From Formosa sp. Hel1_33_131 (lineage in GTDB: Bacteria; Bacteroidota; Bacteroidia; Flavobacteriales; Flavobacteriaceae): a stretch of DNA of 32,000 bases. Location of the stretch: NCBI RefSeq assembly GCF_001735745.1, contig NZ_CP017260.1, positions 1,080,001 through 1,112,000 on the forward strand, read 5' to 3'. The translations under genes were made by a program, and so were the position numbers. Below, piece after piece: positions 5,038 through 32,000 of the stretch (positions are counted from its first letter, which is position 1; each line of letters starts with the position of its first letter). The notes under the pieces were generated by a model that saw only the letters and a program-made list of their open reading frames with translations, was not told where the DNA came from and made no database searches.

Positions 5038-6144
5038 TTATTGATAAACTCTTATATAATCTACTTCCATTGCATCGGATGTAAAGTTAGGATCAATAGT
5101 ACCTCCGTTACTGCCACCCATTGCTAGGTTAAATATTAGAAAGAAGTTGGCATCAAAAGGCAGGGTACTGTTTGTGGAGAGTGCATAGGTTTCGACGCCG
5201 TCAATTAACGCTTTAATACTACCAGCTCTCCAGTCTAAAGAATAGATGTGAAACTCGGCAGGCGTGCTTAAATTCGTCGGCTGTCCATGACTAGCAGGGG
5301 TCCCATTATTATTCCAATGGCAGGTGGTTTGCACATACGATTTATCTTCAAATTGTTCCATGATGTCAATTTCTCCACAATACGGCCATCCTTCAGAACT
5401 AAAACTAGAGCCTAACATCCATAAGGCAGGCCAAGTCCCCGCAACGGATGGAAGTTTCGCGCGAATATCAATCCGTGCATATTTGAAGTCGATTTTATTT
5501 TGAGTTGTAATACGAGCAGAAGAATACGTTCCATTCGATTCTTTTACAGCCGTTATTTTTAAAATGCCGTTTTCTTTAACAACATTATTAGTATTGCTTG
5601 TGTAGATCTGAACTTCTTGATTGCCCCAGCCGCCGCCGCCAGTCTCAAAATTCCAAAATTCGGTATTGATAGATCCATTACCATCAAATTCATCTGACCA
5701 GACTAAAACATCATTATTGCCAGAACCTCCATTGGTGTTTCCATCCACCTCAATTGTTAAGTTTTTAATGGTACTGATGCGTTCGTCAGTGTTTGAATAT
5801 GCATAAATAGTGAGTGCAAATTGATTGGTTCCAGATGTATTAATGGTATGAGAAAAAACACCCGTGGTGTTTTGAGATTCTGTACCGTTACCCACTTTAA
5901 ATCCGTATTTAACAGCATTGGTTGCTGTGGCTGTACAGCTAAAAATACCAGATCCATCGCCATAAGGGTTTGCTGTGTCCTGTCCTTGAATTGTGACAGT
6001 TGCCACTAAGTTGGAGGGTGTGTTTTGTTGATTTCCACCACCTCCACTACCAGAGTCTGAGGAATCATCGTCGCCAGAAGAACACCCTATGAGGGTGAGA
6101 CTGACGATCGTAAATAAAAGTGTAAAAGATTTTAAGTTTTTCAT
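5038..6144 (-). CDS. GH16 endo-beta-1,3-glucanase (laminarinase) with N-terminal PKD/Ig-like module, lipoprotein
   Basis: The catalytic motif GEIDIMEQ matches ExDxxE, and WPALWMLG is also present. I chose the start at MKNLKSF...LTLIGC (ATG at 6144) because the longer ORF to 6201 runs through a perfect terminator palindrome. Confidence 0.85.
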   Translation of the reverse strand: MKNLKSFTLLFTIVSLTLIGCSSGDDDSSDSGSGGGGNQQNTPSNLVATVTIQGQDTANPYGDGSGIFSCTATATNAVKYGFKVGNGTESQNTTGVFSHTINTSGTNQFALTIYAYSNTDERISTIKNLTIEVDGNTNGGSGNNDVLVWSDEFDGNGSINTEFWNFETGGGGWGNQEVQIYTSNTNNVVKENGILKITAVKESNGTYSSARITTQNKIDFKYARIDIRAKLPSVAGTWPALWMLGSSFSSEGWPYCGEIDIMEQFEDKSYVQTTCHWNNNGTPASHGQPTNLSTPAEFHIYSLDWRAGSIKALIDGVETYALSTNSTLPFDANFFLIFNLAMGGSNGGTIDPNFTSDAMEVDYIRVYQ

Positions 6145-10768: not shown

Positions 10769-13700
10769 TTAAAATGAAACATTTAGTCCAAGAATATATT
10801 GTCTAACGGCTGGATAGAATCCACTATCAATACCGCCCCCAATGGCAGCACCATTTGTGGCTGCAGGGTCAAATCCTTTGTACTTCGTAAAAGTAAAAGC
10901 ATTGTTAACGGAAGTGTAAATTCTTACTTTAGACATCCCTATTTTTTGGAGGAGGTCTTCTGGTAAGCTGTATCCCAACTGAATGTTTTGGATACGAACA
11001 AATGAAGCATCTTCTACAAAGAAGTCAGAAAATAATTTATTAGTCGTAGCTCCTGTGGTCGCTCTAGGAACTGTATTGCTGGTTCCTGGACCTGTCCAAC
11101 GGTCTAAGTAATAATCAAGCCGGTTCACTCTGGGTTGGTCACGCTCATAATTACGCACCATTTCCTTACCTATTTCCGCATAGGTATAGGCACTAAAATC
11201 AAAGTCCTTGTAGTTGATTGAGAAGTTAAAGCCCATAAAATAATCGGCTAAAGGTTTTCCAATAAATGTTCTGTCATCGGCGTCAATTTTATTATCCCCA
11301 TTGACATCTACATAACGAATGTCTCCTGGCGCTGCTGCATAACCCAATCCTTCTTGAGTTGGATGGGCATTGACTTCGGCTTGGTTCTGAAAGATTCCAT
11401 TCGTTTGAAGTCCGTAAAAAGATCCTATTGGTTGACCAACGGTCATTATTGAGGGTAGCAAAGGCTGTCCTACTCCAAAAGATCCACCCGTAGGAGAAAC
11501 ATCTCCGATGATGTTAATGACTTCCCCTTTTATCTTAGTTACATTGTAGCTTACATTAAAGGATAGGTTTTCAGAAATATTATCGCTGTAGCTTAACAAC
11601 AACTCATAACCTTCTGATCGTGTAGTACCAGCATTAACTGTTGGAGCTGAAGAGCCTGGAGCAGTCGTTCCTAAAATTCCCGAAACTGGCAGGTTTTCAA
11701 TCAACAAATCCACTCGGTCTTCTAAGAAGTAATCTGCTACAATTTCTAATTTATTATTAAATAATTTAGCGTCCAGTCCAATGTCTAATTTTTCAGCTGT
11801 TTCCCATTGTGCAATTTTATTTGGAAGTTTTCCAAGCGCTTGACCATTGGATAAAGTACCATCAAATACGTAGGTTGCTTCTCCAGATAGTAATGCCTTG
11901 TATAAATCGGCACCAACAAGATTTCCTAGTGTTCCGTAACTTCCTCTTAACTTCAAGAAATCAATTGTTTGATTGTCTTTCAAAAAGTTTTCTTCTGAAA
12001 TTTTCCATCCAGCAGTGACCGATTTAAAGTAATCGATTCTGTAATCATTATCAAAGGCTGAAGATCCATCACGACGTACCATCGCAGACAATAAGTACTT
12101 CCCTTTAAAGTCGTATTGAAGACGTCCAAAATAAGACAACAAACGGTTGTCATAAGTATAAGAACTAGTATCATTACCTGTGCCTAAACCTGTTGTCTGT
12201 GAAATATCTGCAAAATCCCATGAATTGTAAGGGACGTCATAACCTGTTCCAGATAAACCATCACCCCAATTTTTGACAACGGTCATACCAACAGTTGTTT
12301 CAATGTTATGTTTATCTGCAATTGATTTTTTGTACGTTGCAAAAGAATCCCATGTGTAAGAGTCGTATTGATTTCGACCTTGATTGACGGTACTTCGAGT
12401 TGTATTAAATACTTTTCCTGATCCGTAATTTACAATCGGTGAAAAAGACTTGCTTTTATCGCTATAGGTTTTAAACCCGATTCTAGAGGTTACTTTTAAA
12501 GCATCTGTAAGTTTGTATTCTAATTGGAAGTTTCCTTCAATACTGCTTCCAGAATAGGAATTGTAAGTGTCTCTAATTTGAGACAATGGATTGATGATTT
12601 CATTTCCAAATAAAGGCGCATCAGATCCAAACACTCCCCCAACATCTTCTTGATCTAAAGTAAATAATGGCGAATAACTAATCGCATTAAATAATACCGA
12701 ACCTAAACCTGATTCGTTGATTGATTTTCTACTGTTAGAAAAGTAATTAAGATTTAAAGTCGTCTTTAAGCGGTCATTCACGTCCACGCCTAAGTTTAAC
12801 TTTATGTTATCTCTTACATAGTTTGACTTGTCTGGAGCAATGATTCCATCTTGGTCTAAATGGGTTGCACTTAAATAATACGTAATTTTTTCTGTACCTC
12901 CAGATAAACTTAGATTATGGTTAATCAATAGTGCTTCATCAAAAATTTGATCTTGCCAATCTAACCCTTCACCTAAACCACTTAGGTTGGTGTGAGGCAA
13001 ACTTTGTCCATTGGCTGCGTAACTTTCATTGACCAAGGCAGCATACTCCGTACCGTTAAGTAAGGAAAGTTTTTTGGTTGTTTGTTGTACGGCTGCAAAG
13101 GCATTGTAAGATACTTTAGGCGCCGTATTTTTCTTTCCATTTTTAGTTGTTACTAATATAACTCCATTAGCTCCCTGAATTCCATAAATAGCCGCTTGCG
13201 CATCTTTCAATACTGTAAGACTTTCAATATCATTTGGATTCAGACTGTTAAGACTTGATACTATATATCCATCTACAACTAATAAAGGGTCGTTACTAGA
13301 GTTACTACTAACCCCTCTAATTAAGAATTTAAATCCACTTCCTGGCGATCCTGACGCCGAAGAGACAGAAACTCCCGTTGTGGTTCCCTGTAATGCTTGA
13401 GAAACATCTACAGGTTTTAATTTTTCAATTGTTTCAGCGCCTACAAATGACACTGATCCCGTCACATCTTTCCTATTTTTGGATCCATATCCAATCACAA
13501 CAATCTCATCAAGAGATTCGTTGTCTTCGTCTAAAGAAACATCCATGTTTGCCGACGCTGGTAATTCTTTAGTCTCAAACCCTATATAGGTAAAGACTAA
13601 GGTTGCATTCGGTTGTACATTTGTGATGGTGAAATTTCCATCGAAATCGGACACAGCTCCAGTGCTTGTGTCTTTAACTATGACGTTTACTCCTATAAGA

Positions 13701-13810: not shown

Positions 13811-13993
13811 GAATATTGGTTTGTTTTGGTTTACTGTAAATCTAAAACAACTAATTACATAATTTGTTTAAATAACCTCAACAAATGTTATACAAAATAA
13901 AAAAATGTCTGATGTTTAGTGAAATGGCAATATTATAGGGTAAAAAATATTGATTAACAAAATATGGTAAATGTTAAACAAAAGAAATTTGTC

Positions 13994-14039: not shown

Positions 14040-16844
14040 TTATATTTCTAAAATATAATTTGTTAAGCTAGATTCATGGGGTAAATCCATTTTTTTTCGC
14101 AAACGATATCGTTTTACCTCTACACTTCTCGGGGATATATTTAGCAGTGGCGCTATCTCTTTAGAGGATAGATTTAGTCGTAAGTAGGCGCACAAACGAA
14201 GGTCATTTGGGGTGAGTACTGGGTGCTTTTCTTTGATAAGTTTTAGAAAGTCTTTGTCCGCATTGTTAAAGGCTTCTTCAAATAGCTTCCAATCGTCTGT
14301 ATTGTTTAGATTTTTATCAATAATCCTGATTACCTTCTTGATATCCTGTTGATTATCTTTTTCCTTTAATTCACTTTTGATGCTATTCAAGAACTCGTTC
14401 TTTTTAATCAAACTCATTGTAGAGACTGCCAACTCTCGATTCTTACTTTCAATGTCAAGTTTCAGTTTCTCGTTGGTTAACTGCATGAATTTTTGAGAGG
14501 TTTCAAGTTCTTTGAGTGCAAGTTGTTCGTGAGATTTCTGAAGAAGTTGTTGTTGTTGTTTTCTGTAATACCGTTTGTATAGGTTATGGATTAGGATCCA
14601 TAAAATAATAAAAAAGATTACATAAAGAGTTATTGCAGCATTTGAAAGGTGCCAGGGGCGGTTGATAACAAAAGAATAGGAGGCGGTATTGAGAGTTTCG
14701 GAATTCCCTATTTTCCCTTTAACTTTAAACTCATAACTCCCAAAAGGCAGGTTTTCAAATACTTGTTGGGATTCAGCTTGCCAATCCGACCAAGAATTGG
14801 ACCACCCTATTAGCTTGTAAGAATATTTTTTACTGACTACATTGTCGTAGTGAGGAATGCTGTAATTAATATAAATATTATTGTTTTCGGAGTCTAAAAT
14901 CTTTGGATCTGTAGAGTTGAGTCGAAATTTATCTTCATTAATTTTACTGGCCTCAACAGAGTTGATTTTTAAATTATAAAGGTGATTTGGTTTTGGTGTG
15001 TCTGAATTAAAAATAAAATAACCATAAGCAGAGCCTAGAAGATACTCATCTGTCCCAATTTTTGTGAGGTTCTCGAAACCAGAAACAACCTTTTTAAAGT
15101 TTGATATCGCAACTGGAATGATTTCAACTTTTGGTGTTTGCGTAACACTTCCTGCACTAATGATTAAAATATTGTCATCTGCAAAGCACCATTTAAGTCC
15201 CTCAGAGTCCTTGACATCCATAATGGTGGTACGTGTTGAGTACTCTTTTAAGACTTCTTTGAAAGGCTCTGATTCAATGAAGGAATGATCTGTAGGATTG
15301 AATTTGTAAACATCTTCAGACGAGGTGTAATAATAGTTTTTAGAGAATTTTAGAAAGTTGGAGCCATTACCCTTGGTGATTGGAGTAATATTAGAAACTT
15401 TAGAGACCTCAGTTAAATCTTTGTTTAAAGTGAGCTCATATAAACCTCTTAATTCATGGTTCACATATATTTGATCTCCTATGTGTTGATAAAAACGACT
15501 TGAGATATCAAACCCTTTAATTTTATTCCTATAACGCCACCGCCCTTCCGTTTTCTCTAAAAGGCTTAAGCCGTTATAATTTCCTTGTAATATGATGTTT
15601 GGGTTCTCTTTAAGGAGTTTAAAGTCCCACGTTCCAAGGGATTGACCTATACTGTATTGTAGTTTTTGGTTTTTGATGAGTAAGGTTCCGCGGTCATGTC
15701 CACAGAAAATTTGGTTGTCAATAACCTTAAGATTCCACACTTGACCATTTGTACCCTCTATAAAAGTAAAGCCAGAGTTCTTGTCTCTCCGTTTATAAAA
15801 CAGTCCTTGATTTGTCCCTAAGTATAAATAATCTTCAAATAGCACAGAAGTATAGACGGTACCGATGGCTCCTTTTGTATCGTTACAAATAATAAACTGA
15901 GAGGACAGATTTATATGGCTAATTCCAATATCAAGCCCTAGCCATAAGTTATTTTGGTAGTCTTCAAAAACAGATAATACCGTATTATTACTGAGACCCT
16001 TCTCAAAGTTAAGATCATATTTAAGCATCCCGTTTGGACTTAGGTGGTACAGTCCGTTGGAAACAGTCCCTATAACAATACTGTTGTCACTTAACTTAGT
16101 GGTGCTGTATATTGTAAGTGAATTCAGGTCAACTTTAGGGTCTATTTTCCATGGGGTTAGTTTCTTGTTTTCTAGGAGATAAAACCCATTGGATGCCGTG
16201 ATAATTAATAATTGGTTATTAAGCTCAAATACGCCCACAAGGTTATTAGATGTCAACCTTACATCTTCACTAACAAGCTCAACATTTCCATCAATTATTT
16301 TATAAAATCCTTTATTTAGCTGGTTAAAAAACAAGACCCCTTCCACCTCAAATATATTTGAGATGACATGATCAGATTCTATAAAAGTTGTTTCTTTTGT
16401 GAGTTCGTTCACTAAATAAATCCTGGAAAGAGATTGAAAAATTAACCAATCATCTAATTTAATAATGTCCCAAAACTGTTCGTCTTCGTCTAACTCAATA
16501 CCTAATTGCTGTACTAAAGAGGTGTACTCTAAGATGCTTTTATTATTTCGTTTCCAAACACCAAAATCCATATAACTCCCTGTGTAAATTAAGTCGTCAA
16601 TTGCCTTTACCGATCTTACAATAGAGTTGTCTGGGACTGGATAAAGTTTCCAATTCATACCATCATACTCCAATAATCCGGAGTTATTGGCAAAATACAT
16701 GGTTTGATCCGAGGTCTGAGAAATACTCCAGTTTTGATTTTGAGCAGCATAGGCATCTGGATTATAAGCCATTACAGGAGGGTGCTCTTGGGCAGAAATC
16801 ACCAAAGAGGCTAATAAAACTAATATATACTTAATAATCCTCAT
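14040..16844 (-). CDS. One-component PUL regulator with the order periplasmic beta-propeller, Y_Y_Y domain, TM helix, coiled coil, LuxR-type HTH
   Basis: I chose the start MRIIKYILVLLASLVISAQ. The Y_Y_Y motif is YSYKLIGWSNSWSDW...GSYEFKVKG and the TM segment is ITLYVIFFIILWILI. The C-terminal LTPNDLRLCAYLRLNLSSKEIAPLLNISPRSVEVKRYRLRKKM is a LuxR/GerE HTH. Confidence 0.85.
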   Translation of the reverse strand: MRIIKYILVLLASLVISAQEHPPVMAYNPDAYAAQNQNWSISQTSDQTMYFANNSGLLEYDGMNWKLYPVPDNSIVRSVKAIDDLIYTGSYMDFGVWKRNNKSILEYTSLVQQLGIELDEDEQFWDIIKLDDWLIFQSLSRIYLVNELTKETTFIESDHVISNIFEVEGVLFFNQLNKGFYKIIDGNVELVSEDVRLTSNNLVGVFELNNQLLIITASNGFYLLENKKLTPWKIDPKVDLNSLTIYSTTKLSDNSIVIGTVSNGLYHLSPNGMLKYDLNFEKGLSNNTVLSVFEDYQNNLWLGLDIGISHINLSSQFIICNDTKGAIGTVYTSVLFEDYLYLGTNQGLFYKRRDKNSGFTFIEGTNGQVWNLKVIDNQIFCGHDRGTLLIKNQKLQYSIGQSLGTWDFKLLKENPNIILQGNYNGLSLLEKTEGRWRYRNKIKGFDISSRFYQHIGDQIYVNHELRGLYELTLNKDLTEVSKVSNITPITKGNGSNFLKFSKNYYYTSSEDVYKFNPTDHSFIESEPFKEVLKEYSTRTTIMDVKDSEGLKWCFADDNILIISAGSVTQTPKVEIIPVAISNFKKVVSGFENLTKIGTDEYLLGSAYGYFIFNSDTPKPNHLYNLKINSVEASKINEDKFRLNSTDPKILDSENNNIYINYSIPHYDNVVSKKYSYKLIGWSNSWSDWQAESQQVFENLPFGSYEFKVKGKIGNSETLNTASYSFVINRPWHLSNAAITLYVIFFIILWILIHNLYKRYYRKQQQQLLQKSHEQLALKELETSQKFMQLTNEKLKLDIESKNRELAVSTMSLIKKNEFLNSIKSELKEKDNQQDIKKVIRIIDKNLNNTDDWKLFEEAFNNADKDFLKLIKEKHPVLTPNDLRLCAYLRLNLSSKEIAPLLNISPRSVEVKRYRLRKKMDLPHESSLTNYILEI

Positions 16845-21640: not shown

Positions 21641-21706
21641 GATATTTTTATTTAAGGTAATTCCGAACGCAAATTAAGTTTCTTAAAGGGATTAACCTAT
21701 AGCTAT

Positions 21707-21758
21707 GTAACAAACGGCTGTTTCGTGTAACAAACGGTTGATTTAATGTTATAATCGG
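21707..21758 (-). promoter_or_regulatory. Phased direct repeats, core GTAACAAACGG (gene-sense CCGTTTGTTAC), upstream of the T9SS cargo gene
   Basis: Two exact 11-mers lie at 21707-21717 and 21727-21737 (period 20). A degenerate third copy, gttataatcgg, lies at 21748-21758 (8/11, period 21). The repeats are 67-118 nt upstream of the ATG at 21640. Confidence 0.6.
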
Positions 21759-21777: not shown

Positions 21778-22983
21778 TTATGTATTAAGCCTTCTTTTTG
21801 ATATCCATGATATGAGATAAACAAAAGATGATAAAAATAACATTACAAAAAAATGACTGGTAATATCCCAAGATCTTAATGCTAGGGCAATCCCTGTAAT
21901 TATAATCGTGTAAATCACGATTATAAGTGTGCTCTCAAAATGAGAGAAATTTAAATATGTAAGGTGGTGGTGTAAATGATTTCTGTCGGGTATAAAAGGG
22001 CTTTTGCCTTGCACCAATCGCACGCAAAATACACGAAGGGTATCCAATAACGGGAAACTTATTAAAGCTAAAACGATTACACTTGCATTGTTAATAAAGT
22101 AGCCTGTTCCTCCAACAAGGTTGGCTCCATTAGTGGCTGTAATGACCGAAAAAACGCCAAAAGCAATGACCACCCCTAAACTCATTGAGCCATTATCTCC
22201 TAAAAATAAACGCTTTTTGAAATTAAATATTAAAAATGAGGTTAATGCCCCAGAGTAACAAAACATAATTACGGACTGAATCACTAAATCATTTAAAAAG
22301 AAAAATATACCAAAGCATAGGGTGCTAATTAAACCTACAGACGCTGACAAACCATCAATACCATCAATTAGATTAAAAGCATTCACGACGATTACAAATA
22401 CAAATACAGAAAAAACGTAACTAAAAACAGTAGGCAGTTCATAAATTCCAAAAAGCCCATCAAAATTATCAATTCGTATTTCACATGAAATGATTACAAA
22501 AAGAGCTGTAATGATTTGAAAAATTACTTTTTCTAAAGGGCTTACTTCAAATATATCGTCTTTAAGTCCAAAAAATACCATCAGTGAAACAGCACTACAC
22601 AAACCAAAAACTATTTTAAAATCTATATCAATACTAGGGTAGCTGTATAAAAGTAAGCTTGTGAGGGACAATGCGAAAACAACGCTCACAAATACACTAA
22701 CCCCTCCCAAAATAGGTGTCGATTTTATATGTTTTTTTCTTAAATCAGGATGGTCCACTAATTGAAATCTGTGTGCAAATCGAATCGCTTGAGGGATCAA
22801 CCATTGGGCTGTAAAAAAAGCAATTCCAAACACTAAAACAAACAAATAGATATTTGGAGTTACACTTGTTGATTTTAGAAATATTGGATGTGAAAACAAT
22901 AGGTCATTGATCCAAATTCTTGTACTAAATTCCGAAAGCATAAATAAGGTAAAAGTTTCAGTCATATTTAAAACAGTTAACAA
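21778..22983 (-). CDS. Polyprenyl-phosphate sugar-1-phosphate transferase, MraY/WecA (GT4) family
   Basis: This is a polytopic membrane protein with DHPDLRKKH...PILGG, NAFNLIDGIDGL and GDNGS motifs. The true start may be an internal Met (MTETF or MLSEF). Confidence 0.75.
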   Translation of the reverse strand: MLTVLNMTETFTLFMLSEFSTRIWINDLLFSHPIFLKSTSVTPNIYLFVLVFGIAFFTAQWLIPQAIRFAHRFQLVDHPDLRKKHIKSTPILGGVSVFVSVVFALSLTSLLLYSYPSIDIDFKIVFGLCSAVSLMVFFGLKDDIFEVSPLEKVIFQIITALFVIISCEIRIDNFDGLFGIYELPTVFSYVFSVFVFVIVVNAFNLIDGIDGLSASVGLISTLCFGIFFFLNDLVIQSVIMFCYSGALTSFLIFNFKKRLFLGDNGSMSLGVVIAFGVFSVITATNGANLVGGTGYFINNASVIVLALISFPLLDTLRVFCVRLVQGKSPFIPDRNHLHHHLTYLNFSHFESTLIIVIYTIIITGIALALRSWDITSHFFVMLFLSSFVYLISWISKRRLNT

Positions 22984-24438: not shown

Positions 24439-24545
24439 GCTGAATTTGGGGTTTATATTATGTCTTGCCTTGTTTTAAAAAGCAATTTCATTTCATGGTT
24501 TTACAAACAAAGAAAGCAAGCTTAAACGAAAGATACTAGCTTAAT

Positions 24546-24596
24546 GTAACAAACGGCTATTTGACGTAATAAACGGCTGTTTGACGTAACAAACGG
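24546..24596 (-). promoter_or_regulatory. Three phased direct repeats with the same core (GTAACAAACGG / GTAATAAACGG / GTAACAAACGG), period exactly 20 bp
   Basis: The copies lie at 24546-24556, 24566-24576 and 24586-24596. The full gene-sense 20-mers ccgtttgttacgtcaaacag and ccgtttattacgtcaaatag share 18/20. The repeats are 108-158 nt upstream of the OmpA ATG at 24438 and 177 nt or more upstream of the divergent alkB. Confidence 0.6.
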
Positions 24597-24750
24597 TATA
24601 ATTAAGGCATTGCGTTTGAAGTATAAAAATCGTTAATACTAAAATAAAAACACTTCAAAGTCAATATATTACACACAACAACTCATTTCTGCACAAACTA
24701 TATGCTAGAACTGGAAATTTTGAAGATGTATCAGAGAGCAACTCTTAATT

Positions 24751-24758: not shown

Positions 24759-24772
24759 TATATCTTTAAGTG

Positions 24773-25816
24773 ATGAGAAATTTAAAGTATCTTTTTGCTT
24801 ATACAGTACCACTTTCGGCGTTCATCTCATTTGAATCCATGGGGCTAGGAACCTACACTTCCGTTATTTACGCTTTCATAATACTCCCTTTTCTCGACCT
24901 CATTACTGGAAAAGGATCTGAAAATATATCCAAAGAAAAAGCGAATAACAAAAAAACAAGCTGGGTTTTTGATGTGATGTTGTATTTAAATCTACCCATT
25001 GTTTTTGGTCTTTTGTGGCTTGTTTTTTCAAAAATTCAAACACAAGAATACGCCGTTTATGAACTCATTGGATTGGGCCTCTCCGCAGGAATTTTATTGG
25101 CAACCAACGCCATTAATGTGGCGCACGAACTAGGACACAGAACACCTTACTTTGAGCGATTTATGGGAAAACTCCTATACATGCCCTGCTTGTATATGCA
25201 TTTTTATATAGAGCACAACTTTGGTCATCATCTGAATGTGGCGACTCCAAACGACGGCGCTACAGCAAAATACAACCAGACCGTATTTTCGTTTTGGGTC
25301 ACCTCTGTGACAAAGCAATACGTAGATGCTTGGAACTGTCAAATAAAACTTTTAAAAACTCAAAATCGCCCATTCTTATCTGTGAAAAATGACATGCTTT
25401 GGTATCATTTGATTCAACCCACCTATATATTTGGAGTGTTCTATATCTTTTCATTTGATGCGATGCTATTTGCCATCGCTGTTGGAGTGGTGTCTTTTCT
25501 GTTTTTAGAGAGCATCAATTATATTGAGCATTACGGATTGAGACGCTTTAAAACGCCTTCTGGACGGTACGAACGCGTGCAACCGCAGCATTCATGGAAT
25601 TCTAACTTTAAAATTGGAAGAATTGTGTTGTATGAATTGACAAGGCATAGCGACCACCACTTTAAGTCCTCCAAAAAATACCAACTGCTAAACAGTTATG
25701 ACCAAAGTCCAACTTTACCGCTGGGCTACCCCGCTTCTATTCTCTTAAGTTTTATCCCACCACTTTGGTTTAAAATCATGAATCCACGAGTACCAGAAGA
25801 AATGAAGAAGAACTAA
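24773..25816 (+). CDS. alkB: Alkane 1-monooxygenase / membrane fatty-acid-desaturase-like di-iron hydroxylase
   Basis: Four histidine boxes are present in AlkB order: HELGHR, EHNFGHH, NYIEHYGL and RHSDHH. Several TM segments are present. I prefer the ATG at 24773 over the GTG at 24770. Confidence 0.85.
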   Translation: MRNLKYLFAYTVPLSAFISFESMGLGTYTSVIYAFIILPFLDLITGKGSENISKEKANNKKTSWVFDVMLYLNLPIVFGLLWLVFSKIQTQEYAVYELIGLGLSAGILLATNAINVAHELGHRTPYFERFMGKLLYMPCLYMHFYIEHNFGHHLNVATPNDGATAKYNQTVFSFWVTSVTKQYVDAWNCQIKLLKTQNRPFLSVKNDMLWYHLIQPTYIFGVFYIFSFDAMLFAIAVGVVSFLFLESINYIEHYGLRRFKTPSGRYERVQPQHSWNSNFKIGRIVLYELTRHSDHHFKSSKKYQLLNSYDQSPTLPLGYPASILLSFIPPLWFKIMNPRVPEEMKKN

Positions 25817-25838
25817 AGGTTGTGAATTGAACTATCTA

Positions 25839-25951
25839 TTCTGAAGAGAATAATTCATAAATAAATTCTTTTTTAAAATTACATGAAACATATTTAGACC
25901 TGTCTTAATCTATTGATTTTGTCAAGTTCCTCAACTGTTTACGGGACTTAG
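25839..25951 (+). pseudogene. Decayed remnant of a Fic gene unit (5' leader plus about the first 26 codons), homologous to 30703-30808
   Basis: 25849-25901 and 30716-30768 are identical at 49/53 positions by hand alignment. The ATG is changed to ATA at 25861-25863 and an in-frame TAA lies at 25906-25908. The remnant translates to INSFLKLHETYLDLS*SIDFVKFLN, against MNSLLKLYETYLDLKKEDDFDFDKFNQ in the intact gene. Confidence 0.8.
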
Positions 25952-27261
25952 TTTAAAAAAACTTCTTTGATACGTCGATCATCTTTGTTTTGTCTAAACT
26001 TTAAAACAGCCCCTTTAGATTTTGTGTAAATTGAGAGCACTTTATCGATGCGATGTATTGAGAGTCGTAATTTTTTAACGCGAGATTCGTAGGACAAATT
26101 GGGTTCAAAAAAAGTTAAAATTGACGGAAAATCGACAGCAGTTGGGTGTTCCTTAAGTAGGAGTTCTAAAACACTAAAGTCTTCTGAACTTAGTTCTTTA
26201 CGGATATTGTTGGATCTCTTTACGATGATACTATAGTTGCTTTTGGGCTGTATTTTTAAATACACAAAAAAGAGGGCAATCATCAAAAACAGTGATAGAA
26301 GTATATACAATCCATATTGAATATCTTTTTGGTACAGTTGATATTCATTTGTAGAGGAACCTAACAACTCTAAAGGCGTCATAAAAACAAAGCGATACGA
26401 TTGAGAATTGTGTTTCAATTTCGAAATCATAAAAAGATTGGTAGATGGATTGAAATCAATACGGTCAATACTCTCAAAAAGAATTGGATTGACATCCATA
26501 AATTTTTTAATGACATTGTTTTTAATATCAAACAAAAACACCTCCCCACGACATATCGCAAGGGTTCCACTATTGTAAGAAACTTTTAGGGTAGACGGTA
26601 GAAATAGATTACTAGAGTTGTCAGAAAAATCAAAATCAGCTTTGCCCAAGTAGGTCCAAAAATGAGTGTTTAAATCTAATTTCCAAACATCCTTCAAAAC
26701 ATTATAACTCAACTCAAGTTGCTCATTAACCCGTTTGTTGGTTCCTCCGGCAACATACAGAAAAGAATCCTCCAATTGCCCGAATATACGTTGTCTCGGA
26801 GCAGGAATTTTTGAGTCTGGATGGTAAAAAAATTCACTCCATTCCTGATTTAATTCATTAAAAAAAGTGAGATTGGGATTAGTCATAAACAAACCATAAC
26901 CTCCAAAGGAATGTATTTTATTATCAAACGTAAAATCAAAAGATTTAAACTTATTTCGATGTTCAAAAGACTTATCCAAACGCTCAAAAGCATTGTCTTT
27001 GAACCGATACAGAACCCCACCCCCTTTTGTTACTAAAATTGTTTCGTTGGGGCGATGAATCGCATCGAAATCAAAATGTGGCCAATCCATTTTATGAGCC
27101 CATGTGTCGTAAGATTTTCCGTTTTTGGTAACAAACACAGAATCAGAATCAACGGTATAAAAGAATTCTTTTGAGTGGAAACTAAAAAATGATCCGCTCG
27201 GTAACTCTGAATAAGAGGGACTTACAAATGACAAGAAAAAAGCGATTACTAAAGGCATCAT
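25948..27261 (-). CDS. Membrane-anchored putative one-component regulator with the order signal peptide, Kelch-like beta-propeller, TM helix, C-terminal winged-helix-like domain
   Basis: 437 aa. Kelch-like blades are present (IHSFGGYGLF...NEW, LYVAGGTNKR...DVWKLDL..W). The TM segment is YGLYILLSLFLMIALFFVYL. The C-terminus LSSEDFSVLELLLKEHPTAVDF...SRVKKLRLSIHRIDKVL...VLKFR resembles an OmpR/PhoB-type effector domain. The function is inferred only. Confidence 0.5.
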   Translation of the reverse strand: MMPLVIAFFLSFVSPSYSELPSGSFFSFHSKEFFYTVDSDSVFVTKNGKSYDTWAHKMDWPHFDFDAIHRPNETILVTKGGGVLYRFKDNAFERLDKSFEHRNKFKSFDFTFDNKIHSFGGYGLFMTNPNLTFFNELNQEWSEFFYHPDSKIPAPRQRIFGQLEDSFLYVAGGTNKRVNEQLELSYNVLKDVWKLDLNTHFWTYLGKADFDFSDNSSNLFLPSTLKVSYNSGTLAICRGEVFLFDIKNNVIKKFMDVNPILFESIDRIDFNPSTNLFMISKLKHNSQSYRFVFMTPLELLGSSTNEYQLYQKDIQYGLYILLSLFLMIALFFVYLKIQPKSNYSIIVKRSNNIRKELSSEDFSVLELLLKEHPTAVDFPSILTFFEPNLSYESRVKKLRLSIHRIDKVLSIYTKSKGAVLKFRQNKDDRRIKEVFLN

Positions 27262-27353
27262 AAATACAGGATATATAGTGTAATGTACTAAAAATTCATG
27301 AAAATACTGCTTAACTCAATTAGATTTACAAACTAAATTTAAAAACTTTTGAT

Positions 27354-27833
27354 ATGAAGAAAATTATTATTTTACTTATGCTGCCATTACTACTCATAGG
27401 ATGCGGAGATGACGATGGAGATGGAAACAACAACAGCACTGCCTTTGACCCCAATGAACCAATGATAGGGGCATGGCAACAAATTTCTGAAGAGAGGTAC
27501 TTCTTTGAAGATGGATCGAATAATGTAAGAGCTTGTTTAGGTGAATTAGATCCAGAACTTCCGAGCAAAATTTTTGCGTATTCGAATGGAAAGTTGGATA
27601 TGTACTTTTATGAATGCATTGGAGGAACTAATGAATTTGATCCAGTACGATCGGAAGAATTATTGTCTTTGGGTGGAAATTGGGAACAAATTGGATCTCA
27701 AGGAAATTATTTGTTTTTTGACCCAGCAGACGAAGAACCTAATGAAGAAATTGTTTACTTTGAATTTAGCAGTGATAAATCGCAATTTACGCATGATACT
27801 GGTGAAGTTATACAAATTTGGGAACGACAGTAG
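27354..27833 (+). CDS. Small hypothetical lipoprotein
   Basis: 159 aa. The lipobox is LLLIGCGDDDGDG. The mature part is acidic with a lipocalin-like IGAWQQ segment. The gene is divergent from the propeller-wHTH gene and is followed by a terminator. Confidence 0.7.
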   Translation: MKKIIILLMLPLLLIGCGDDDGDGNNNSTAFDPNEPMIGAWQQISEERYFFEDGSNNVRACLGELDPELPSKIFAYSNGKLDMYFYECIGGTNEFDPVRSEELLSLGGNWEQIGSQGNYLFFDPADEEPNEEIVYFEFSSDKSQFTHDTGEVIQIWERQ

Positions 27834-27857
27834 TTATTGTTGTATTTTTTTAGTATT

Positions 27858-27887
27858 AAAACCTCGCAATATTGTGAGGTTTTTTTA
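27858..27887 (+). terminator. Rho-independent terminator after the lipoprotein gene
   Basis: The stem is cctcgca/tgtgagg (one G-U pair) with a 4-nt loop and A/T extensions, followed by a T7 run at 27880-27886. Confidence 0.7.
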
Positions 27888-27976
27888 TGCATACTGGGCT
27901 GATTCACACACTAAAGCAAGCTTCATTCGTTGCTGAAAACAAAATTAGATTCAACTTAATCAAAAAATGTGTATTG

Positions 27977-29452
27977 CTATTTAATTTTGAGCACTCCTTG
28001 ATCACTCTCCATAAAGGCATTACTCTGCTGTAATACAGATTCCATACCACCCATGTCTTCTCCTAAAAGCGTATGACTAAAAGCCTGTGCTCTATTGAGC
28101 ATGCGTATATAAACAGCGGCTTCTTGATCTCTGCTCAGCCGCCTCAAACCGCCTAAATAGTCCTCTCGATAGACCGTAGGTATAATTATTTTCGTTTGTG
28201 CTGCGCAGGCCAATTCTGCATTCATCATCACGCGAGCCAGTCTGCCGTTACCATCTAAAAACGGATGCACTTCACTGATGACAAACATCATATAGACCGC
28301 TTTCGCAAAAGGATGCGTTAGCGCCTGATAATAATCAAAACTTTTATGAAGCGTACCAACAACCAATTCCATGTCTACAAATGATGTATTACCAGCACGA
28401 TTGTTCTTGTCTTTAAACTTTCCTGGTTTCTTATCGTCTCTAGCACTTAATAAAGTTTGATGTCTGTATTTTAGAATGTCAATGAACTCTTCTTTTGAAC
28501 TTGGAACAATTTTCATTTCTCTAGGGTTGGAAACCAATTGATAGGTTCCTAAAACATCATGCGAATCTTCATTTCTGGCTGGCAAGGGTTGTTGCGTTGC
28601 AATAACCTGTTTTGCTTCTTCAATTTCAAAAACAGTACCCTCAATATAATTTGAGAAATAACTTTCATAAAACGCAAAATTACGATACGCTCCAGTAGTG
28701 CTGTTTTGCTCCTCTAAATTCTTGAATTCTTGTTGTTGTAATTCTCTAAACAAGTATTCAAATAACGCTATTCGATTTGAATCATAGGGTTGCCCATAAG
28801 CTCTTGCAGTTGCAACAGGAGACTTTAATATGTCAGATGGTTTGGTCGTTAGTAATGCACTAATTAGTTGGTTGAGTTTTTTAAATTCCTTTTGCATTCC
28901 AATTTCTTCTGAAATCGTTCTTGCTCTATCTCTTACTTTATTCAATTCATCTTCTCCATTAACACGTATAATCTGTTCTAATTTTTCTTCTATTTGAGGA
29001 AATGGAAGTGTTTTAGAATCTGACCCAGGTCGTTTTGAGGTTTGTAAATTTTCAAGTAATGCACGCTCTCTTTGAGAAACCATCAAACTTCCTGAAAATA
29101 AGTGATCCCCTTCAATAGCAGTCCAACCCTCTATAAAACGAATCGTTACGCCGGGAAGCTTTACTTTTTTTGTGTATTTGTAGGTTACAAATAATTGCCC
29201 TGTAGCCGTTGGTTTAAACTCAAATGCAGATCGATGACTTAATATAGATCCTGGATATTGATTTCCGAGAATGGAGAAAATGTTTCGCTGAATAATGTTT
29301 TCTGAGGTATCTTCAAAATTAGAAGTATAAATTTTTGAAGCGAGTTTTCTAATCTTACCCTCTTTTTTTAACTTAGATATCTGTCTTGAAATATTTGAAT
29401 CGCTAGATCCGTAAATGATTTCTTGGAGATGTATTTGACTGTTTTTTTCCAT
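27977..29452 (-). CDS. Class II Fic (AMPylase-type) protein with an N-terminal AbiEi-antitoxin-like winged-helix domain
   Basis: 491 aa. The canonical Fic motif HPFLDGNGRLAR matches HxFx(D/E)GNGRxxR. The in-cis inhibitory helix motif SNYIEG matches (S/T)xxxE(G/N). The N-terminus ISRQISKLKKEGKIRKLASKIYTS ... PGSILSHRSAFEF resembles AbiEi (G.l.rl.rGlY ... avis..SAl). Confidence 0.75.
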   Translation of the reverse strand: MEKNSQIHLQEIIYGSSDSNISRQISKLKKEGKIRKLASKIYTSNFEDTSENIIQRNIFSILGNQYPGSILSHRSAFEFKPTATGQLFVTYKYTKKVKLPGVTIRFIEGWTAIEGDHLFSGSLMVSQRERALLENLQTSKRPGSDSKTLPFPQIEEKLEQIIRVNGEDELNKVRDRARTISEEIGMQKEFKKLNQLISALLTTKPSDILKSPVATARAYGQPYDSNRIALFEYLFRELQQQEFKNLEEQNSTTGAYRNFAFYESYFSNYIEGTVFEIEEAKQVIATQQPLPARNEDSHDVLGTYQLVSNPREMKIVPSSKEEFIDILKYRHQTLLSARDDKKPGKFKDKNNRAGNTSFVDMELVVGTLHKSFDYYQALTHPFAKAVYMMFVISEVHPFLDGNGRLARVMMNAELACAAQTKIIIPTVYREDYLGGLRRLSRDQEAAVYIRMLNRAQAFSHTLLGEDMGGMESVLQQSNAFMESDQGVLKIK

Positions 29453-29679
29453 TACAACGACTTAACTCAACAAATTTGATAACTTTTTTCCAATATAGCG
29501 CTATTTTTTACAAATAATTTCCATTATAGGGAAATGCAAATTTCCTAATATAAGTTCAATTTCGATAGATTTTCTCCAATATGACTGAGTTGAAAAAGTT
29601 CAGGTTTTTCAACAATAGATCTACTTAGCTATTTCAAATCATAGAAGCGCGTGGAAATAAAAGATTAAAAAAAAACGAC

Positions 29680-29967
29680 TTAGCGCGTTTTGGCTAATGT
29701 ATCACAAAGTGCCTCTAAATTATCCATTTCGCCCCTTATCGTATCTATAATCTCTTTAGGACTTTTATCTCCTCTGACGGGTTTAAATAAGTCCATTACC
29801 TCTATACCTAAAGTATCCGCAAACTTACCGAGCATTTCAAAACTAGGTGTTTGAGAACCAATAATAATGCGATTAATGCTACCCCTTGACATACCTACTT
29901 CAATCCCAAACCCCTCATACGTATAGCCTTTCTTTTTAATTTGTTCTTTGATGTTTAAAAAATCCAT
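29680..29967 (-). CDS. XRE-family helix-turn-helix transcriptional regulator
   Basis: I chose the start MDFLNIKEQIKKKGYTYEGFGIEVGMSRGSINRIIIGSQTPSFEMLGKFADTLGIEV, a typical HTH_3. The track ORF extends 11 codons further upstream. Confidence 0.8.
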   Translation of the reverse strand: MDFLNIKEQIKKKGYTYEGFGIEVGMSRGSINRIIIGSQTPSFEMLGKFADTLGIEVMDLFKPVRGDKSPKEIIDTIRGEMDNLEALCDTLAKTR

Positions 29968-30038
29968 GAATAACGTTTTTAAGTTTAAGCAAATATACAA
30001 ATTACGTCACTAAACAAATAAAACGTACCATATTGTTT

Positions 30039-30057
30039 GTAATTGTGCCTAATTACA
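30039..30057. promoter_or_regulatory. Candidate operator: perfect inverted repeat TGTAATT-N6-AATTACA in the XRE/repeat-protein divergent intergenic region
   Basis: The sequence tgtaattgtgcctaattaca is centred in the 140-bp divergent region. Related half-site-like sequences lie at 29997-30005 (acaaattac) and 30062-30068 (atttgta). Outer imperfect arms are cgtcact (30004-30010) and agtgacg (30076-30082). Confidence 0.4.
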
Positions 30058-30107
30058 GTACATTTGTAGTCATAAAGTGACGCAATAGAAATCAAAATCT
30101 AAAAACC

Positions 30108-30587
30108 ATGAAACCCCAAACCGCCAAACAACTTACAGATGCCAATCAGAAAGCCCTAAAAGAGGGGAAACCAGTGCCCTACACCAAACAGCAGCACGCC
30201 GCCGCCAAAGGTTGCGACCCCGATGCTAAAAGGTATTGGAACTTTTTTTTAAACGGCAGGGAAGCCTACACCAAAAAAGAATATGCCAATACCAAAGGAT
30301 GTGATGCCCTAGCCGTAATCATATGGAATCGGCTTTTACCAGATGCAGAACCATTCAGCAAACAGGAATACAGCAACACCTATGGCTTGAGTGCTAAGGA
30401 CTTCATTTTATGGAACGAATGCCTGCCAGATGCCGAACCATTCACCAAACAAGAATACAACATCACCTATGGTTTTAGTGCTAACAACTTAACATTGTGG
30501 AACGAATGCCTACCAAATGCCGAACCATTCACCAAGGGTGAAATAAACGAATTGATTAAAGCAAATGACAACGAACACGCTACATAA
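30108..30587 (+). CDS. Hypothetical protein built from four to five tandem 29-aa repeats
   Basis: 159 aa. The repeat units follow the pattern (A/P)EP(F/Y)(T/S)K(Q/K)EY.N..G......WN..LP. The underlying DNA period is 87 bp, and 30339-30425 matches 30426-30512 at 73/87 by hand count. I recognise no known family. Confidence 0.6.
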   Translation: MKPQTAKQLTDANQKALKEGKPVPYTKQQHAAAKGCDPDAKRYWNFFLNGREAYTKKEYANTKGCDALAVIIWNRLLPDAEPFSKQEYSNTYGLSAKDFILWNECLPDAEPFTKQEYNITYGFSANNLTLWNECLPNAEPFTKGEINELIKANDNEHAT

Positions 30588-30727
30588 AATCACATTTGAT
30601 ATAGCGTTTGATTTATGTGAATGGAGACATCTAGGCGTAAAAAAATAATTAGAATCCTATTTTAATAGTATATTTGGATATATCAAAATTTAGTATTACA
30701 ATTTCTGAAGAATTAAATAATTCATAA

Positions 30728-31528
30728 ATGAATTCTCTTTTAAAATTATATGAAACGTATTTAGACCTAAAAAAAGAGGATGATTTTGATTTTGACAAAT
30801 TCAATCAATTTGCGATTGTTCATCACTCAAACTCAATTGAAGGATCTACACTTAGTAAGGAAGAAACTTATCTATTATTAAGCGAAAATTTAACCCCTAA
30901 AAATAAACCCTTAGAGCATACGTTGATGGCTATTGATCATTATGCAGCTTTAAAATACGTGATTGGTTTAGCAGCGTCTAAAACAGAACTGTCCGATGTT
31001 ATTATTAGAAAAATAGCATCCTTAATAATGGATAAAACAGGCTCGGAAATATCGTCTATGGCAGGTAATTTTGATTCCTCAAAGGGGGATTACAGAAAAG
31101 TGACAGTGAGAGCGGGCAATACGACGTTTATGGATTACCAAAAAGTTCCAGAAAAAGTTAATGAGTTATTAAACTATATTAATGACACTATTAATACAGT
31201 AAAAGGGTTTCAACAAATCAATGAATTAGCTTTTGACGCCCACTTTCAGATGGTTTCAATTCATCCATTTGCGGATGGAAATGGAAGACTCAGTCGGCTT
31301 TTGATGAACTATGTACAGCACTACCATAAAATTCCGTTAACAGCGATCTATTTAGAAAACAAATCAGACTATTTTACGGCCTTAGAAGACACTCGAAATC
31401 AGAAAGACATTACTATTTTCAGGAAATTTATGTTTGATCAAACAACTAAAAATCTATTAGAAAAAATAGAGGAACTCTCTCAGAAACAAGTCTCAAAAAA
31501 GGGGAAAGGAATGAATTTTCTTTTTTAA
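30728..31528 (+). CDS. Class II Fic family protein (short form)
   Basis: 266 aa. The Fic motif is HPFADGNGRLSR and the N-terminal inhibitory motif SNSIEG matches (S/T)xxxE(G/N). Confidence 0.85.
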   Translation: MNSLLKLYETYLDLKKEDDFDFDKFNQFAIVHHSNSIEGSTLSKEETYLLLSENLTPKNKPLEHTLMAIDHYAALKYVIGLAASKTELSDVIIRKIASLIMDKTGSEISSMAGNFDSSKGDYRKVTVRAGNTTFMDYQKVPEKVNELLNYINDTINTVKGFQQINELAFDAHFQMVSIHPFADGNGRLSRLLMNYVQHYHKIPLTAIYLENKSDYFTALEDTRNQKDITIFRKFMFDQTTKNLLEKIEELSQKQVSKKGKGMNFLF

Positions 31529-31786
31529 ATTATATTCGCTCAAAATACAATAGATTAATAGAAGGTTTTTTGCTGAAGACGGGACTTAGCTCCGCTGAGT
31601 CCCAGAACCAACATTTTGAGAAAAGCCGACGTCGTTCCATTATTTTCGAAACAAATGCTAATTTTTTGATCGTGCAGTGAAATAAAGCTTATAACTTAGG
31701 ATCTGCAAGAGGGCTAAGTGAAATTTTGTGAAGCCTGAACAAGCTAACGTATAAAATTAGCTCCTATAAAACCCTTGATTAATATA

Positions 31787-31837: not shown

Positions 31838-32000
31838 ATGAGTAAGACAGAAAAACTCTTAGAAAAATTTAAAAGTATTCCTAATGATTTAACGTGGGAT
31901 GAACTCGTTAAAATATTAAATTATTTGGGGTATTTTGAATTATCAAAAAAAGGTAAAACAGGGGGTTCTCGACGAAAATTTGTAAATGAACTAAAAGACG
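31838..32000 (+). CDS. hicA: HicA-family mRNA interferase toxin, 5' part (runs out of the window)
   Basis: My own translation is MSKTEKLLEKFKSIPNDLTWDELVKILNYLGYFELSKKGKTGGSRRKFVNELKD... It matches the HicA/YcfA pattern (..W.EL.K.L...G....R..GSH..F). It is not in the track because it is truncated. Confidence 0.65.
   Translation, partial: MSKTEKLLEKFKSIPNDLTWDELVKILNYLGYFELSKKGKTGGSRRKFVNELKD

Follow-up and report, generated by a model that had tools for sequence, protein, structure and literature searches.

The stretch that follows the alkB-like gene in the window analysed here (32,000 nucleotides of the Formosa sp. Hel1_33_131 chromosome) is an ordinary integrase-less genomic-island scar, with a structure of a known kind. 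The island extends from alkB to a leucine tRNA gene outside the window and holds Fic, AbiEi-Fic, HicAB and further toxin-antitoxin genes. It contains three copies of a repeated unit, U, in which a leader of 111 nt is followed by fic, a terminator and the final 15 nt of tRNA-Leu(UAA). The best reading places the recombination point in the T-loop of this tRNA gene. Serial insertion at that T-loop, each segment bringing its own fic unit and the older copies being displaced leftward and eroded, is the explanation towards which we lean.

From the left, the present order is alkB, the eroded copy U_L, segment A (Kelch, lipoprotein, AbiEi-Fic, XRE and repeat protein) and U_M, in which fic is intact and the 15-nt tRNA fragment exact. 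Then come segment B (R-hicAB-R-TA-R'-TA), U_R, tRNA-Leu, tRNA-Gly and mutS. The features within the window are:

24770..25816, plus strand: alkB-like membrane fatty-acid desaturase or alkane hydroxylase (Pfam FA_desaturase, E 2.4e-24)
25821..25901, plus strand: U_L part 1, fic leader and codons 1-14, remnant of an older fic copy
25898..25920, plus strand: U_L part 2, remnant of the terminator (T), loop inverted
25935..25951, plus strand: U_L part 3, decayed tRNA-Leu 3'-end core CTGTTTACGGGACTT (12/15), then AG
25948..27261, minus strand: Kelch-repeat protein, first gene of segment A (Pfam Kelch)
27354..27833, plus strand: small lipoprotein-like ORF, no family match
27977..29452, minus strand: fusion of an AbiEi-like N-terminus with a Fic domain (HPFLDGNGR; Pfam Fic, E 7e-14)
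29680..29970, minus strand: XRE-family HTH regulator (Pfam HTH_3)
30108..30587, plus strand: repeat protein of tandem 87-nt (29-aa) units, no family match
30617..31528, plus strand: U_M, intact fic unit, 111-nt leader (30617-30727) and fic (30728-31528)
31529..31572, plus strand: hybrid flank 3' of fic, made of the fic 3' flank and the right half of the tRNA-Leu terminator
31573..31587, plus strand: displaced tRNA-Leu(UAA) 3'-end fragment, att-type core CTGAAGACGGGACTT (15/15 against the tRNA-Leu gene in L001-L011)
31588..31738, plus strand: R1, first copy of a ~154-nt repeat, beginning directly after the core
31838..32000, plus strand: start of hicA, first toxin-antitoxin operon of segment B (weak Pfam HicA, truncated ORF)

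The tRNA-Leu core and the intact fic unit

At 31573-31587, ctgaagacgggactt reproduces the tRNA-Leu(UAA) gene's 3' end without a mismatch, and no second exact copy of the core exists in the window. Read on the tRNA sense strand, the core AAGTCCCGTCTTCAG starts at the fourth base of the T-loop TTCAAGT and passes from its AAGT through the T-stem and acceptor strand to the tRNA 3' end. The intact gene is found at 13888-13972 of contig L002 and at equivalent positions in L001-L010. Judged from contigs ~99% identical to the window (L003 and L007, 99.1%; L092, 99.8%), it lies ~2.6 kb past the window's end, on the minus strand with its 3' end toward fic. The first-pass annotation had noted a repeated 11-mer, acgggacttag, and a count over the 32 kb indeed gives exactly two occurrences, at 25941 and 31579. 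Its caution that the match could be chance can be set aside, since 31573-31587 is the exact 15-nt tRNA-Leu 3' end; the 11-mer does signal a boundary. After ...GGGACTT, segments A and B begin at the identical nucleotide, each opening with AG, and the cores at 25935-25949 and 31573-31587 bracket six genes without a recombinase.

The fic gene of U_M (Pfam Fic, E 5e-17) has the active-site motif HPFADGNGR and an N-terminal SNSIEG inhibitory-type motif, and is assigned by PADLOC to PDC-S04 and SoFic. The AbiEi-Fic gene is assigned to AbiEi, SoFic and PDC-S04, and both proteins carry the Fic/DOC family (PF02661) motif HPFx[D/E]GNGR. The left boundary of U_M, 30617, is set by the extent of homology to the left copy in the sister strain L009. 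At its other end, the joint of the hybrid flank is a 14-nt repeat, ctcaaaat(a)caata, where the ~285-nt spacer of the third copy is missing. In L002, 10756-10825 is 97% identical to 13504-13573 and 10812-10860 is 88% identical to 13858-13905; the 49-nt flank plus core is 88% identical to the true tRNA flank. The third copy, U_R, beside the tRNA, retains the fic 3' end only, over 70 nt in strains of the L002 type and over 209 nt, at 92.8%, in those of the L001/L009 type. Between U_M and U_R, segment B runs past the window to tRNA-Leu, with full HicA and HicB present in L001-L010 and R recurring among the toxin-antitoxin operons (L002 10858-11011 against 11733-11882, 91%, and 12611-12700). Elsewhere, Fic homologs of 60-72% identity are solitary chromosomal genes and not mobile-element ends, and Kelch homologs (63-66% identity) occupy other chromosomal contexts, without a core 3' of the stop codon.

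The eroded left copy

The Fic-like repeat reported next to alkB is real. Positions 25849-25901 match 30716-30768, where the leader and opening 14 codons of the intact fic lie, at 49/53, and the local alignment of 25839-25901 with 30703-30768 has 63 identities, one 3-nt gap and a score of 92, against a shuffle maximum of 32 (n=200). The loss of the start codon (ATG to ATA at 25861-25863) and the in-frame TAA (25906-25908) were also correctly described. The homology had been drawn as far as 25938; it stands up to 25901 but not beyond, since 25898-25920 is an inverted terminator loop, identical at 22/23 to the reverse complement of the tRNA-Leu-adjacent terminator in L002 (13856-13878). This match scores 41 against a shuffle maximum of 30 and includes a 19-nt exact match (E 3e-4); the supposed missing gatttt unit came from a wrong alignment of this region. 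The terminator remnant joins fic codon 14 at ACCT microhomology. Inside U_L the order is fic 5' part, terminator loop and decayed core; the stop codon of the Kelch gene (25948-25950, minus strand) spans the core junction. The decayed core is CTGATTACGGGACTT in L009 (13/15) and GCTGAATATCGCACTTAG in L125, where the CTGAA part lost in the window is kept.

Other strains retain different pieces of this copy. In L009 it is longer, at 152 nt, beginning 5 nt past the alkB stop and aligning to window 30617-30768 (130 nt at 90.8%, E 4e-48). The window's leader has a lineage-specific deletion of ~75 nt between ATCTAT..TGAAGA repeats, with its junction near 25839-25846, which created the 'ttctgaag' at 25839. 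The hexamer ctgaag is present at 25841, 30705 and 31573 as reported, but it marks no unit boundary at the first two, 25841 being a deletion junction. The proposed unit of ~887 bp is right in its two direct copies (~0.9-1 kb, ending ...acgggactt), while its start lies left of ttctgaag (30617, from L009). L125 holds another fic piece at the left copy, nt ~595-715 (window 31319-~31440; 79% identity, E 1.6e-21), adjoining the same core, AG and Kelch junction as in the window. U_L must therefore once have been a complete gene, and the L125 remnant is independent proof both of the two direct copies and of the collapse of the left one through an internal deletion of ~770 bp. Judged from these sequences, U_L is the wreck of a second, formerly complete fic gene. 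It has eroded independently in three lineages and is without present function, its promoter region and start codon being lost in the window's strain.

Relatives and the origin of the array

All same-species contigs examined carry the island, and its content varies. L125 has neither AbiEi-Fic nor XRE, and XRE is present in 0, 1 or 2 copies depending on the strain; the five-gene cassette first proposed does not have a fixed content. L011, the closest other species (AlkB 88%, MutS 96%), shares the synteny GT4-OmpA-alkB ... tRNA-Leu-tRNA-Gly-mutS, with alkB as the conserved left flank; it has zero island genes between alkB and tRNA-Leu, other genes lying there. At a distance of 145 nt from its own tRNA-Leu it also has a duplicated terminator and core, followed by R's initial 47 nt. 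A second genomic context also holds segment B with U_R, at an identity of 98-99.9% and with the breakpoint exactly at the tRNA 3' end, and in L106 segment B is flanked by ~85-nt direct repeats of non-tRNA sequence. The statement that the cassette has no integrase holds for the window ORFs, and no integrase or recombinase domain was found within 10 kb either side in ten long contigs (L001-L010). A search for an empty site had been proposed as a check in related genomes; no contig examined contained one in the form alkB-fic-tRNA-Leu, nor an excised form or circular junction.

How could such an array be assembled? Under serial insertion, the ancestor would have had alkB followed by one U running into the tRNA-Leu gene. 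Foreign DNA would have entered the T-loop at least twice, each incoming segment with its own U copy at the tRNA-proximal end. That copy would have rebuilt the tRNA, while the resident U moved leftward with the displaced tRNA 3' fragment. We infer the order of these insertion events from the present layout. A tyrosine integrase may have acted in trans at the T-loop, in which case segments A and B would be CIME-like units in a tandem array. Serial insertion is supported by the exact core of U_M and its tRNA-type flank, the order of the remnants in U_L, the L125 fic piece, U_R beside the tRNA, the shared starting nucleotide of A and B, the L011 duplicate and the second context of segment B. A regenerated tDNA with a displaced 3' fragment is the mark of island ends, tandem arrays exist, and attP sites in the T-stem region are a major class (PMC4383910). 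Several features count against this explanation: neither an integrase nor an empty site was found in the contigs, the Fic homologs elsewhere are solitary genes, the core of the window's U_L is only 12/15, the inverted terminator loop requires an extra loop-flip event, and mosaic alleles or gene conversion are needed because similarity to U_M is 91-95% for the U_L 5' part but 79% for the L125 remnant. The repeats also reach past the tRNA gene into terminator and fic, so that homologous recombination fits as well as site-specific recombination.

The same final topology could have arisen by homologous recombination (RecA-dependent, Campbell-type or homology-facilitated) with no integrase ever involved, a rather unlikely alternative. 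Circular or linear DNA from relatives with the same fic-terminator-tRNA-Leu region would have been added, not replaced, through ~1 kb of homology. Duplications extending well past the tRNA gene (leader, fic and terminator in the window; T' and core, ~38 nt, in L011) would follow naturally, and the missing integrase, the non-tRNA repeats around segment B in L106 and the switching of the right-hand variable TA modules at R repeats are all in keeping with it. However, A and B begin at one exact T-loop nucleotide, which is unexpected for exchange within a 1-kb repeat and is the precision expected for site-specific crossover. An internal origin, in which a segmental (tandem) fic-to-tRNA duplication in one genome was followed by deletions and later gene gain between the copies, appears improbable. 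In its favour, composition is uniform across the region, and in the 53-nt core a single position separates both U_L versions from U_M while the other 5 differences are lineage-specific, so the copies were nearly identical shortly before the strain split. Against this, several extra precise events would be needed to set the unrelated A and B at core boundaries, the divergence between U_R and U_M is 7%, the ~285-nt spacer of U_R is missing from U_M, and segment B is found in a second context.

The first-pass annotation suggested that a mobile element had entered fic at its 5' end and brought along a new one, which would make the two copies of that end attL and attR. Direct repeats of the fic 5' end do flank the cassette, and islands that target a protein gene at its 5' end have been described, as at dusA, where such repeats likewise lie on both sides of the inserted DNA (PMC4482086). 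Unlike in dusA-type islands, the left copy here was a whole gene, the crossover lies in the tRNA T-loop and not in fic, and no integrase adjoins the repeat. This origin is contradicted by the full-length left copy, of which L125 retains nt ~595-715, and by remnants of the copy's own terminator and tRNA-Leu core, which separate what is left of the fic 5' part from the cassette; with the integrase also missing, it is very improbable.

If serial insertion is correct, the puzzling 100-bp similarity becomes a readable history of the locus. The leucine tRNA gene outside the window would be an insertion hotspot where toxin-antitoxin and Fic modules accumulated; with every arrival, a tRNA fragment would have been displaced and a fic copy left to erode. 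For annotation, the 'cassette' is best treated as part of a larger island extending to tRNA-Leu, and 25821-25951 marked as a fic pseudogene with an att-type scar. The locus offers a natural example of integrase-less island remnants, of independent pseudogene erosion in sister lineages and of modular turnover of defence and toxin-antitoxin genes in marine Flavobacteriaceae.

Comparison with known mobile systems

The closest parallels are the tRNA islands catalogued by Islander (PMC4383910), which share with this locus an intact tRNA at one end, several units stacked at one tRNA, and directly oriented, displaced 3' tRNA fragments at the inner as well as the outer boundaries. In both, the fragment starts in the T-loop/T-stem region and the cargo is of toxin-antitoxin and defence type. 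Here the intact tRNA is accompanied by same-orientation 3' fragments (15/15 at U_M; at the left copy 12/15 in the window and 13/15 in L009, with L125 keeping a complementary remnant). Unlike those islands, the present units are very small (about 3-6 kb), each has a resident-type fic copy and terminator next to the core, and they are without an integrase in the window ORFs or within ±10 kb in L001-L010. Cis-mobilizable elements (CIMEs) and the accretion of integrative elements in Streptococcus were reportedly described by Pavlovic in 2004 and by Bellanger in 2011. As there, att-type repeats flank segments without recombination or transfer genes, in tandem at a tRNA-type site; unlike there, no cognate integrative element or integrase was found, the host is a marine Flavobacteriaceae and mobilisation is putative.

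The Vibrio superintegron, a chromosomal integron cassette array rich in toxin-antitoxin genes, resembles segment B in its short toxin-antitoxin operons separated by a recurring ~150-nt repeat, here R. It differs in that this locus has no IntI, R is without an attC-like hairpin and the array is anchored at a tRNA gene. An integron cassette array was rejected as a candidate: no integrase was found in the window or the related contigs, and R folds no better than shuffles (z = -0.13). R also matches no Rfam family. A more speculative proposal, to which we give little credence, is that the alkB-to-tRNA-Leu region is an unrecognised cassette-stacking system of marine Flavobacteriaceae, in which an unlinked integrase moves small integrase-less modules between loci. 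The modules (Fic, AbiEi-Fic, HicAB, MazEF and YafQ) would each be bounded by the T-loop core and a conserved ~150-nt R arm and would be added, swapped and moved, the fic-terminator unit travelling as a tRNA-restoring arm. Such a system would be functionally integron-like, anchored at a tRNA.

A displaced tRNA-Leu fragment at the island boundary

The locus recurs in many marine metagenome assemblies, with identities to the window of 99.8% (contig L092) and 99.1% (L003 and L007). Longer contigs reveal an island spanning from an alkB-like gene to a tRNA-Leu(UAA)/tRNA-Gly(GCC) pair directly before mutS, and the window therefore ends inside an island. No tRNA gene lies in the window, the relevant one being seen only in the longer related contigs. 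On the plus strand the tRNA-Leu 3' end reads ...gtactgaagacgggacttgaaccc, and the 15-mer at 31573-31587 (ctgaagacgggactt) is an exact copy of it, covering on the sense strand the last four T-loop bases, the T-stem and the acceptor strand. Together with its left flank (49 nt in all), this 15-mer matches the terminator-plus-tRNA junction at 88% identity, and in every long contig the 15-mer is limited to two places, after fic and at the tRNA-Leu 3' end. The first-pass annotation had noticed that acgggacttag occurs twice, and indeed there are exactly two occurrences in 32 kb (25941 and 31579). The "ctgaag + acgggacttag" following fic is thus a piece of the tRNA that has been displaced, a classical sign of an island boundary (PMC4383910).

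Features of the repeated unit (window coordinates unless a contig is named)
30728-31528: intact fic (Pfam Fic, E 5e-17), its leader and first 14 codons matching the left copy
CTGAAGACGGGACTT: tRNA-Leu core, adjoining the R repeat at junctions
CTGTTTACGGGACTT: decayed core of the left copy, following the terminator remnant, 12/15 to the tRNA-Leu core
31588-31738, and L002 11733-11882 and 12611-12700: R, a repeat of ~154 nt, 88-92% identical between copies

Three copies of a fic-terminator-core unit

The unit, made up of a leader, fic, a terminator and the tRNA-derived core, is present as decayed left (U_L), intact middle (U_M) and tRNA-side (U_R) copies. The order is alkB, U_L, segment A (Kelch, lipoprotein, AbiEi-Fic, XRE and repeat-protein genes), U_M, segment B (R-hicAB-R-TA pair-R'-YafQ or MazEF module), U_R, tRNA-Leu, tRNA-Gly and mutS.

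The fic-like repeat previously reported after alkB is real. Positions 25849-25901 and 30716-30768 are identical at 49/53 sites (repeat finder, family D2), and local alignment of 25839-25901 with 30703-30768, with one 3-nt gap, scores 92 against a mean of 22.6 and a maximum of 32 when the left intergenic region was shuffled 200 times. The start codon is changed from ATG to ATA (25861-25863) and an in-frame TAA is found at 25906-25908. The homology had been extended to 25938, but the fic match stops at 25901; 25898-25920 instead matches the terminator loop beside tRNA-Leu in reverse-complement orientation (22/23, including 19 exact nt, E 3e-4; score 41, shuffle maximum 30), overlapping the fic remnant by an ACCT microhomology, and the loop was presumably flipped. 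This match is much better than the earlier pairing of 25902-25938 with fic codons 15-27, which it replaces, and a likeness by eye between distal U_L and the spacer after U_R was not above shuffles. The decayed core, whose L009 counterpart is CTGATTACGGGACTT (13/15), is followed directly by AG and the Kelch stop codon. This stop codon (minus strand, 25948-25950) spans the junction of decayed tRNA core and inserted segment, and the gene therefore ends exactly at an att-type boundary, with no 3' flank of its own. Since fic 5' end, terminator and tRNA fragment occur in the right order, U_L represents the entire unit in collapsed form, as first proposed.

Related strains show how this copy eroded. 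A sister strain (L009/L010) is ~98% identical within the island and more divergent leftward; its left copy begins 5 nt past the alkB stop, is 152 nt long, aligns to window 30617-30768 and retains the ATG. U_L of the window is this sequence minus a further ~75 nt, deleted between ATCTAT..TGAAGA repeats, and the ttctgaag at 25839, formerly read as a unit boundary, therefore arose as the deletion junction. In the more distant lineage of L125, with a Kelch protein 89% identical to that of the window, the order is OmpA, remnant, Kelch, lipoprotein and repeat protein; alkB, AbiEi-Fic and XRE are absent from this locus. The remnant aligns to window 31319-~31440 (fic nt ~595-715; 79% identity, E 1.6e-21) and is followed by GCTGAATATCGCACTT, then AG and the Kelch stop codon; the CTGAA of the core, gone from the window, is still present here. 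Three lineages have therefore eroded a single ancestral fic-terminator-core unit of full length in three ways, and L125 independently proves the former completeness of the left copy. An oddity is that U_L in its 5' part matches U_M at 91-95%, as against just 79% for the L125 remnant, and within the 53-nt match just one position sets both U_L versions apart from U_M; mosaic alleles or gene conversion could lie behind this contrast.

U_R is a fic 3' remnant adjoining the true tRNA-Leu. L002-type strains have 70 nt of it, at 97% identity; in L001/L009-type strains it extends to 209 nt (92.8%) and contains a premature stop. The flank 3' of intact fic is the U_R flank, fused at a 14-nt repeat to the tRNA-proximal terminator, and U_M has therefore lost a ~285-nt spacer.

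The intervening cassette (compared over window 27945-30183) is no fixed unit: AbiEi-Fic and XRE are missing in L125, and XRE is present in zero (L109), one (window) or two (L002) copies. The two XRE copies of L002 (8512-9004) have an 86-nt repeat in common, and the 159-aa protein 5' of fic (30178-30535) is made up of tandem 87-nt (29-aa) units, PxAEPFxKxEY..., with no family match. L002 and L009 are 100% identical across the intact fic unit and 98-100% over most of the island, as against 93-97% in alkB and ~75% in the OmpA/GT4 region, which suggests that the island recombined or was swept relative to its hypervariable left flank.

The R repeat and island segments in other genomes

R starts right after the tRNA-Leu core and recurs 5' of each toxin-antitoxin operon of the island. 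It matched no Rfam family, and does not appear to be a decayed tRNA: there was no Rfam tRNA match, and past the 15-nt core its alignment to tRNA-Leu is gappy and weak. Nor is it an attC-like hairpin (fold z = -0.13, no significant fold), and a 10-bp hairpin at 31581-31603 is absent from R2. Relaxed ARAGORN runs gave weak extra tRNAs in L002 at ~5763-5854, inside the Kelch gene, and ~11665-11757, from the hicB end into the first ~25 nt of R2, both lacking Rfam support. Sigma-70 promoter and terminator scans were uninformative.

In the closest other species (L011; AlkB 88%, MutS 96%), unrelated genes lie between alkB and tRNA-Leu, and 145 nt from tRNA-Leu (14537-14745) is a duplicated terminator and core, after which come the first 47 nt of R. 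The 145-nt mini-insert contains the R start, a spacer and a terminator copy (T') between two copies of the terminator and tRNA-Leu 3' end, and resembles an island of which just the two arms are left. Segment B with a fic remnant also occurs in a second context at 98-99.9% identity (L104 1-4056; L106 6790-11804), where hicAB-to-MazEF lies between DUF1501/DUF1800 and a Kelch paralog (39% identity). Direct repeats of ~85 nt (T' plus acccaattga...) stand on both sides, and the breakpoint relative to L009 is exactly the tRNA-Leu 3' end. The core|Kelch junction is not conserved in more distant Kelch homologs.

Neither phage nor plasmid origin was borne out: core plus R matched no phage, no viral contig contained core plus AGYT, and the sole plasmid match was to the Fic domain. 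Other Flavobacteriaceae have fic homologs of 60-72% identity as solitary genes on the chromosome; fic is therefore no obvious mobile-element gene, and is not a conserved mobile-element end. In L094 (316-3256) an 89% fic allele lies beside a serine recombinase and is also preceded by an overlapping 71-aa HTH-like ORF, a different and possibly mobile context.

Assembly of the array and other repeats nearby

How might such an array have been assembled? The evidence best supports serial insertion at the tRNA-Leu T-loop, a model in which every incoming segment would bring its own fic-terminator-core arm and so rebuild the tRNA, the resident arm and tRNA fragment would be shifted leftward on each insertion, and redundant fic copies would decay afterwards. 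Segments A and B begin at the same first nucleotide after ...GGGACTT, both opening with AG, which argues for site-specific crossover, putatively by a trans-acting integrase; with such an enzyme, A and B would be CIME-like units. The cassette was correctly described as free of integrase genes; the window has none, and ten long contigs have none within 10 kb of the island either. Given this lack, and as the repeats also reach beyond the tRNA gene, recombination of a Campbell-type or homology-facilitated kind, acting through the ~1-kb unit, is still a serious rival to serial site-specific insertion.

Internal duplication is a less likely source of the copies. The original reading, integration of an element into the 5' end of fic, conflicts with L125 and with the remnants of terminator and core. 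Contigs with an exact AlkB or an exact Fic, and the JGI loci, gave no empty site; no contig held an excised form, and GC is 0.33-0.37 in cassette and flanks alike, giving no contrast. The locus is a genuine molecular fossil, well resolved and of a known kind: an island array anchored at a tRNA and lacking an integrase. Useful for annotation and a tidy case of modular TA/Fic turnover, it would not surprise a specialist.

Other repeats were observed nearby. The tRNA-Gly(GCC) of L009 (14405-14540) also has a duplicated 3' fragment (gagcgaaagacgagatttgaactc), flanking a ~110-nt insert with a perfect palindrome, cctgcctgccggcaggcagg. In the window, 7203-7502 and 7659-7958 form a 300-nt direct repeat (99% identical, 456 nt spacing) inside a SusC/SusD polysaccharide-utilisation locus, within a 681-aa ORF (7194-9239) that has no Pfam match; the repeat looks like a recent internal domain duplication. 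Tandem ~20-nt motifs, GTAACAAACGGCTGTTT, occupy intergenic 21682-21746 and 24521-24605, the first 3' of the minus-strand GT4 gene (21778-22983) and the second 5' of OmpA, on the side of alkB. Both L011 and L125 retain these motifs, which may be binding sites of a shared regulator.
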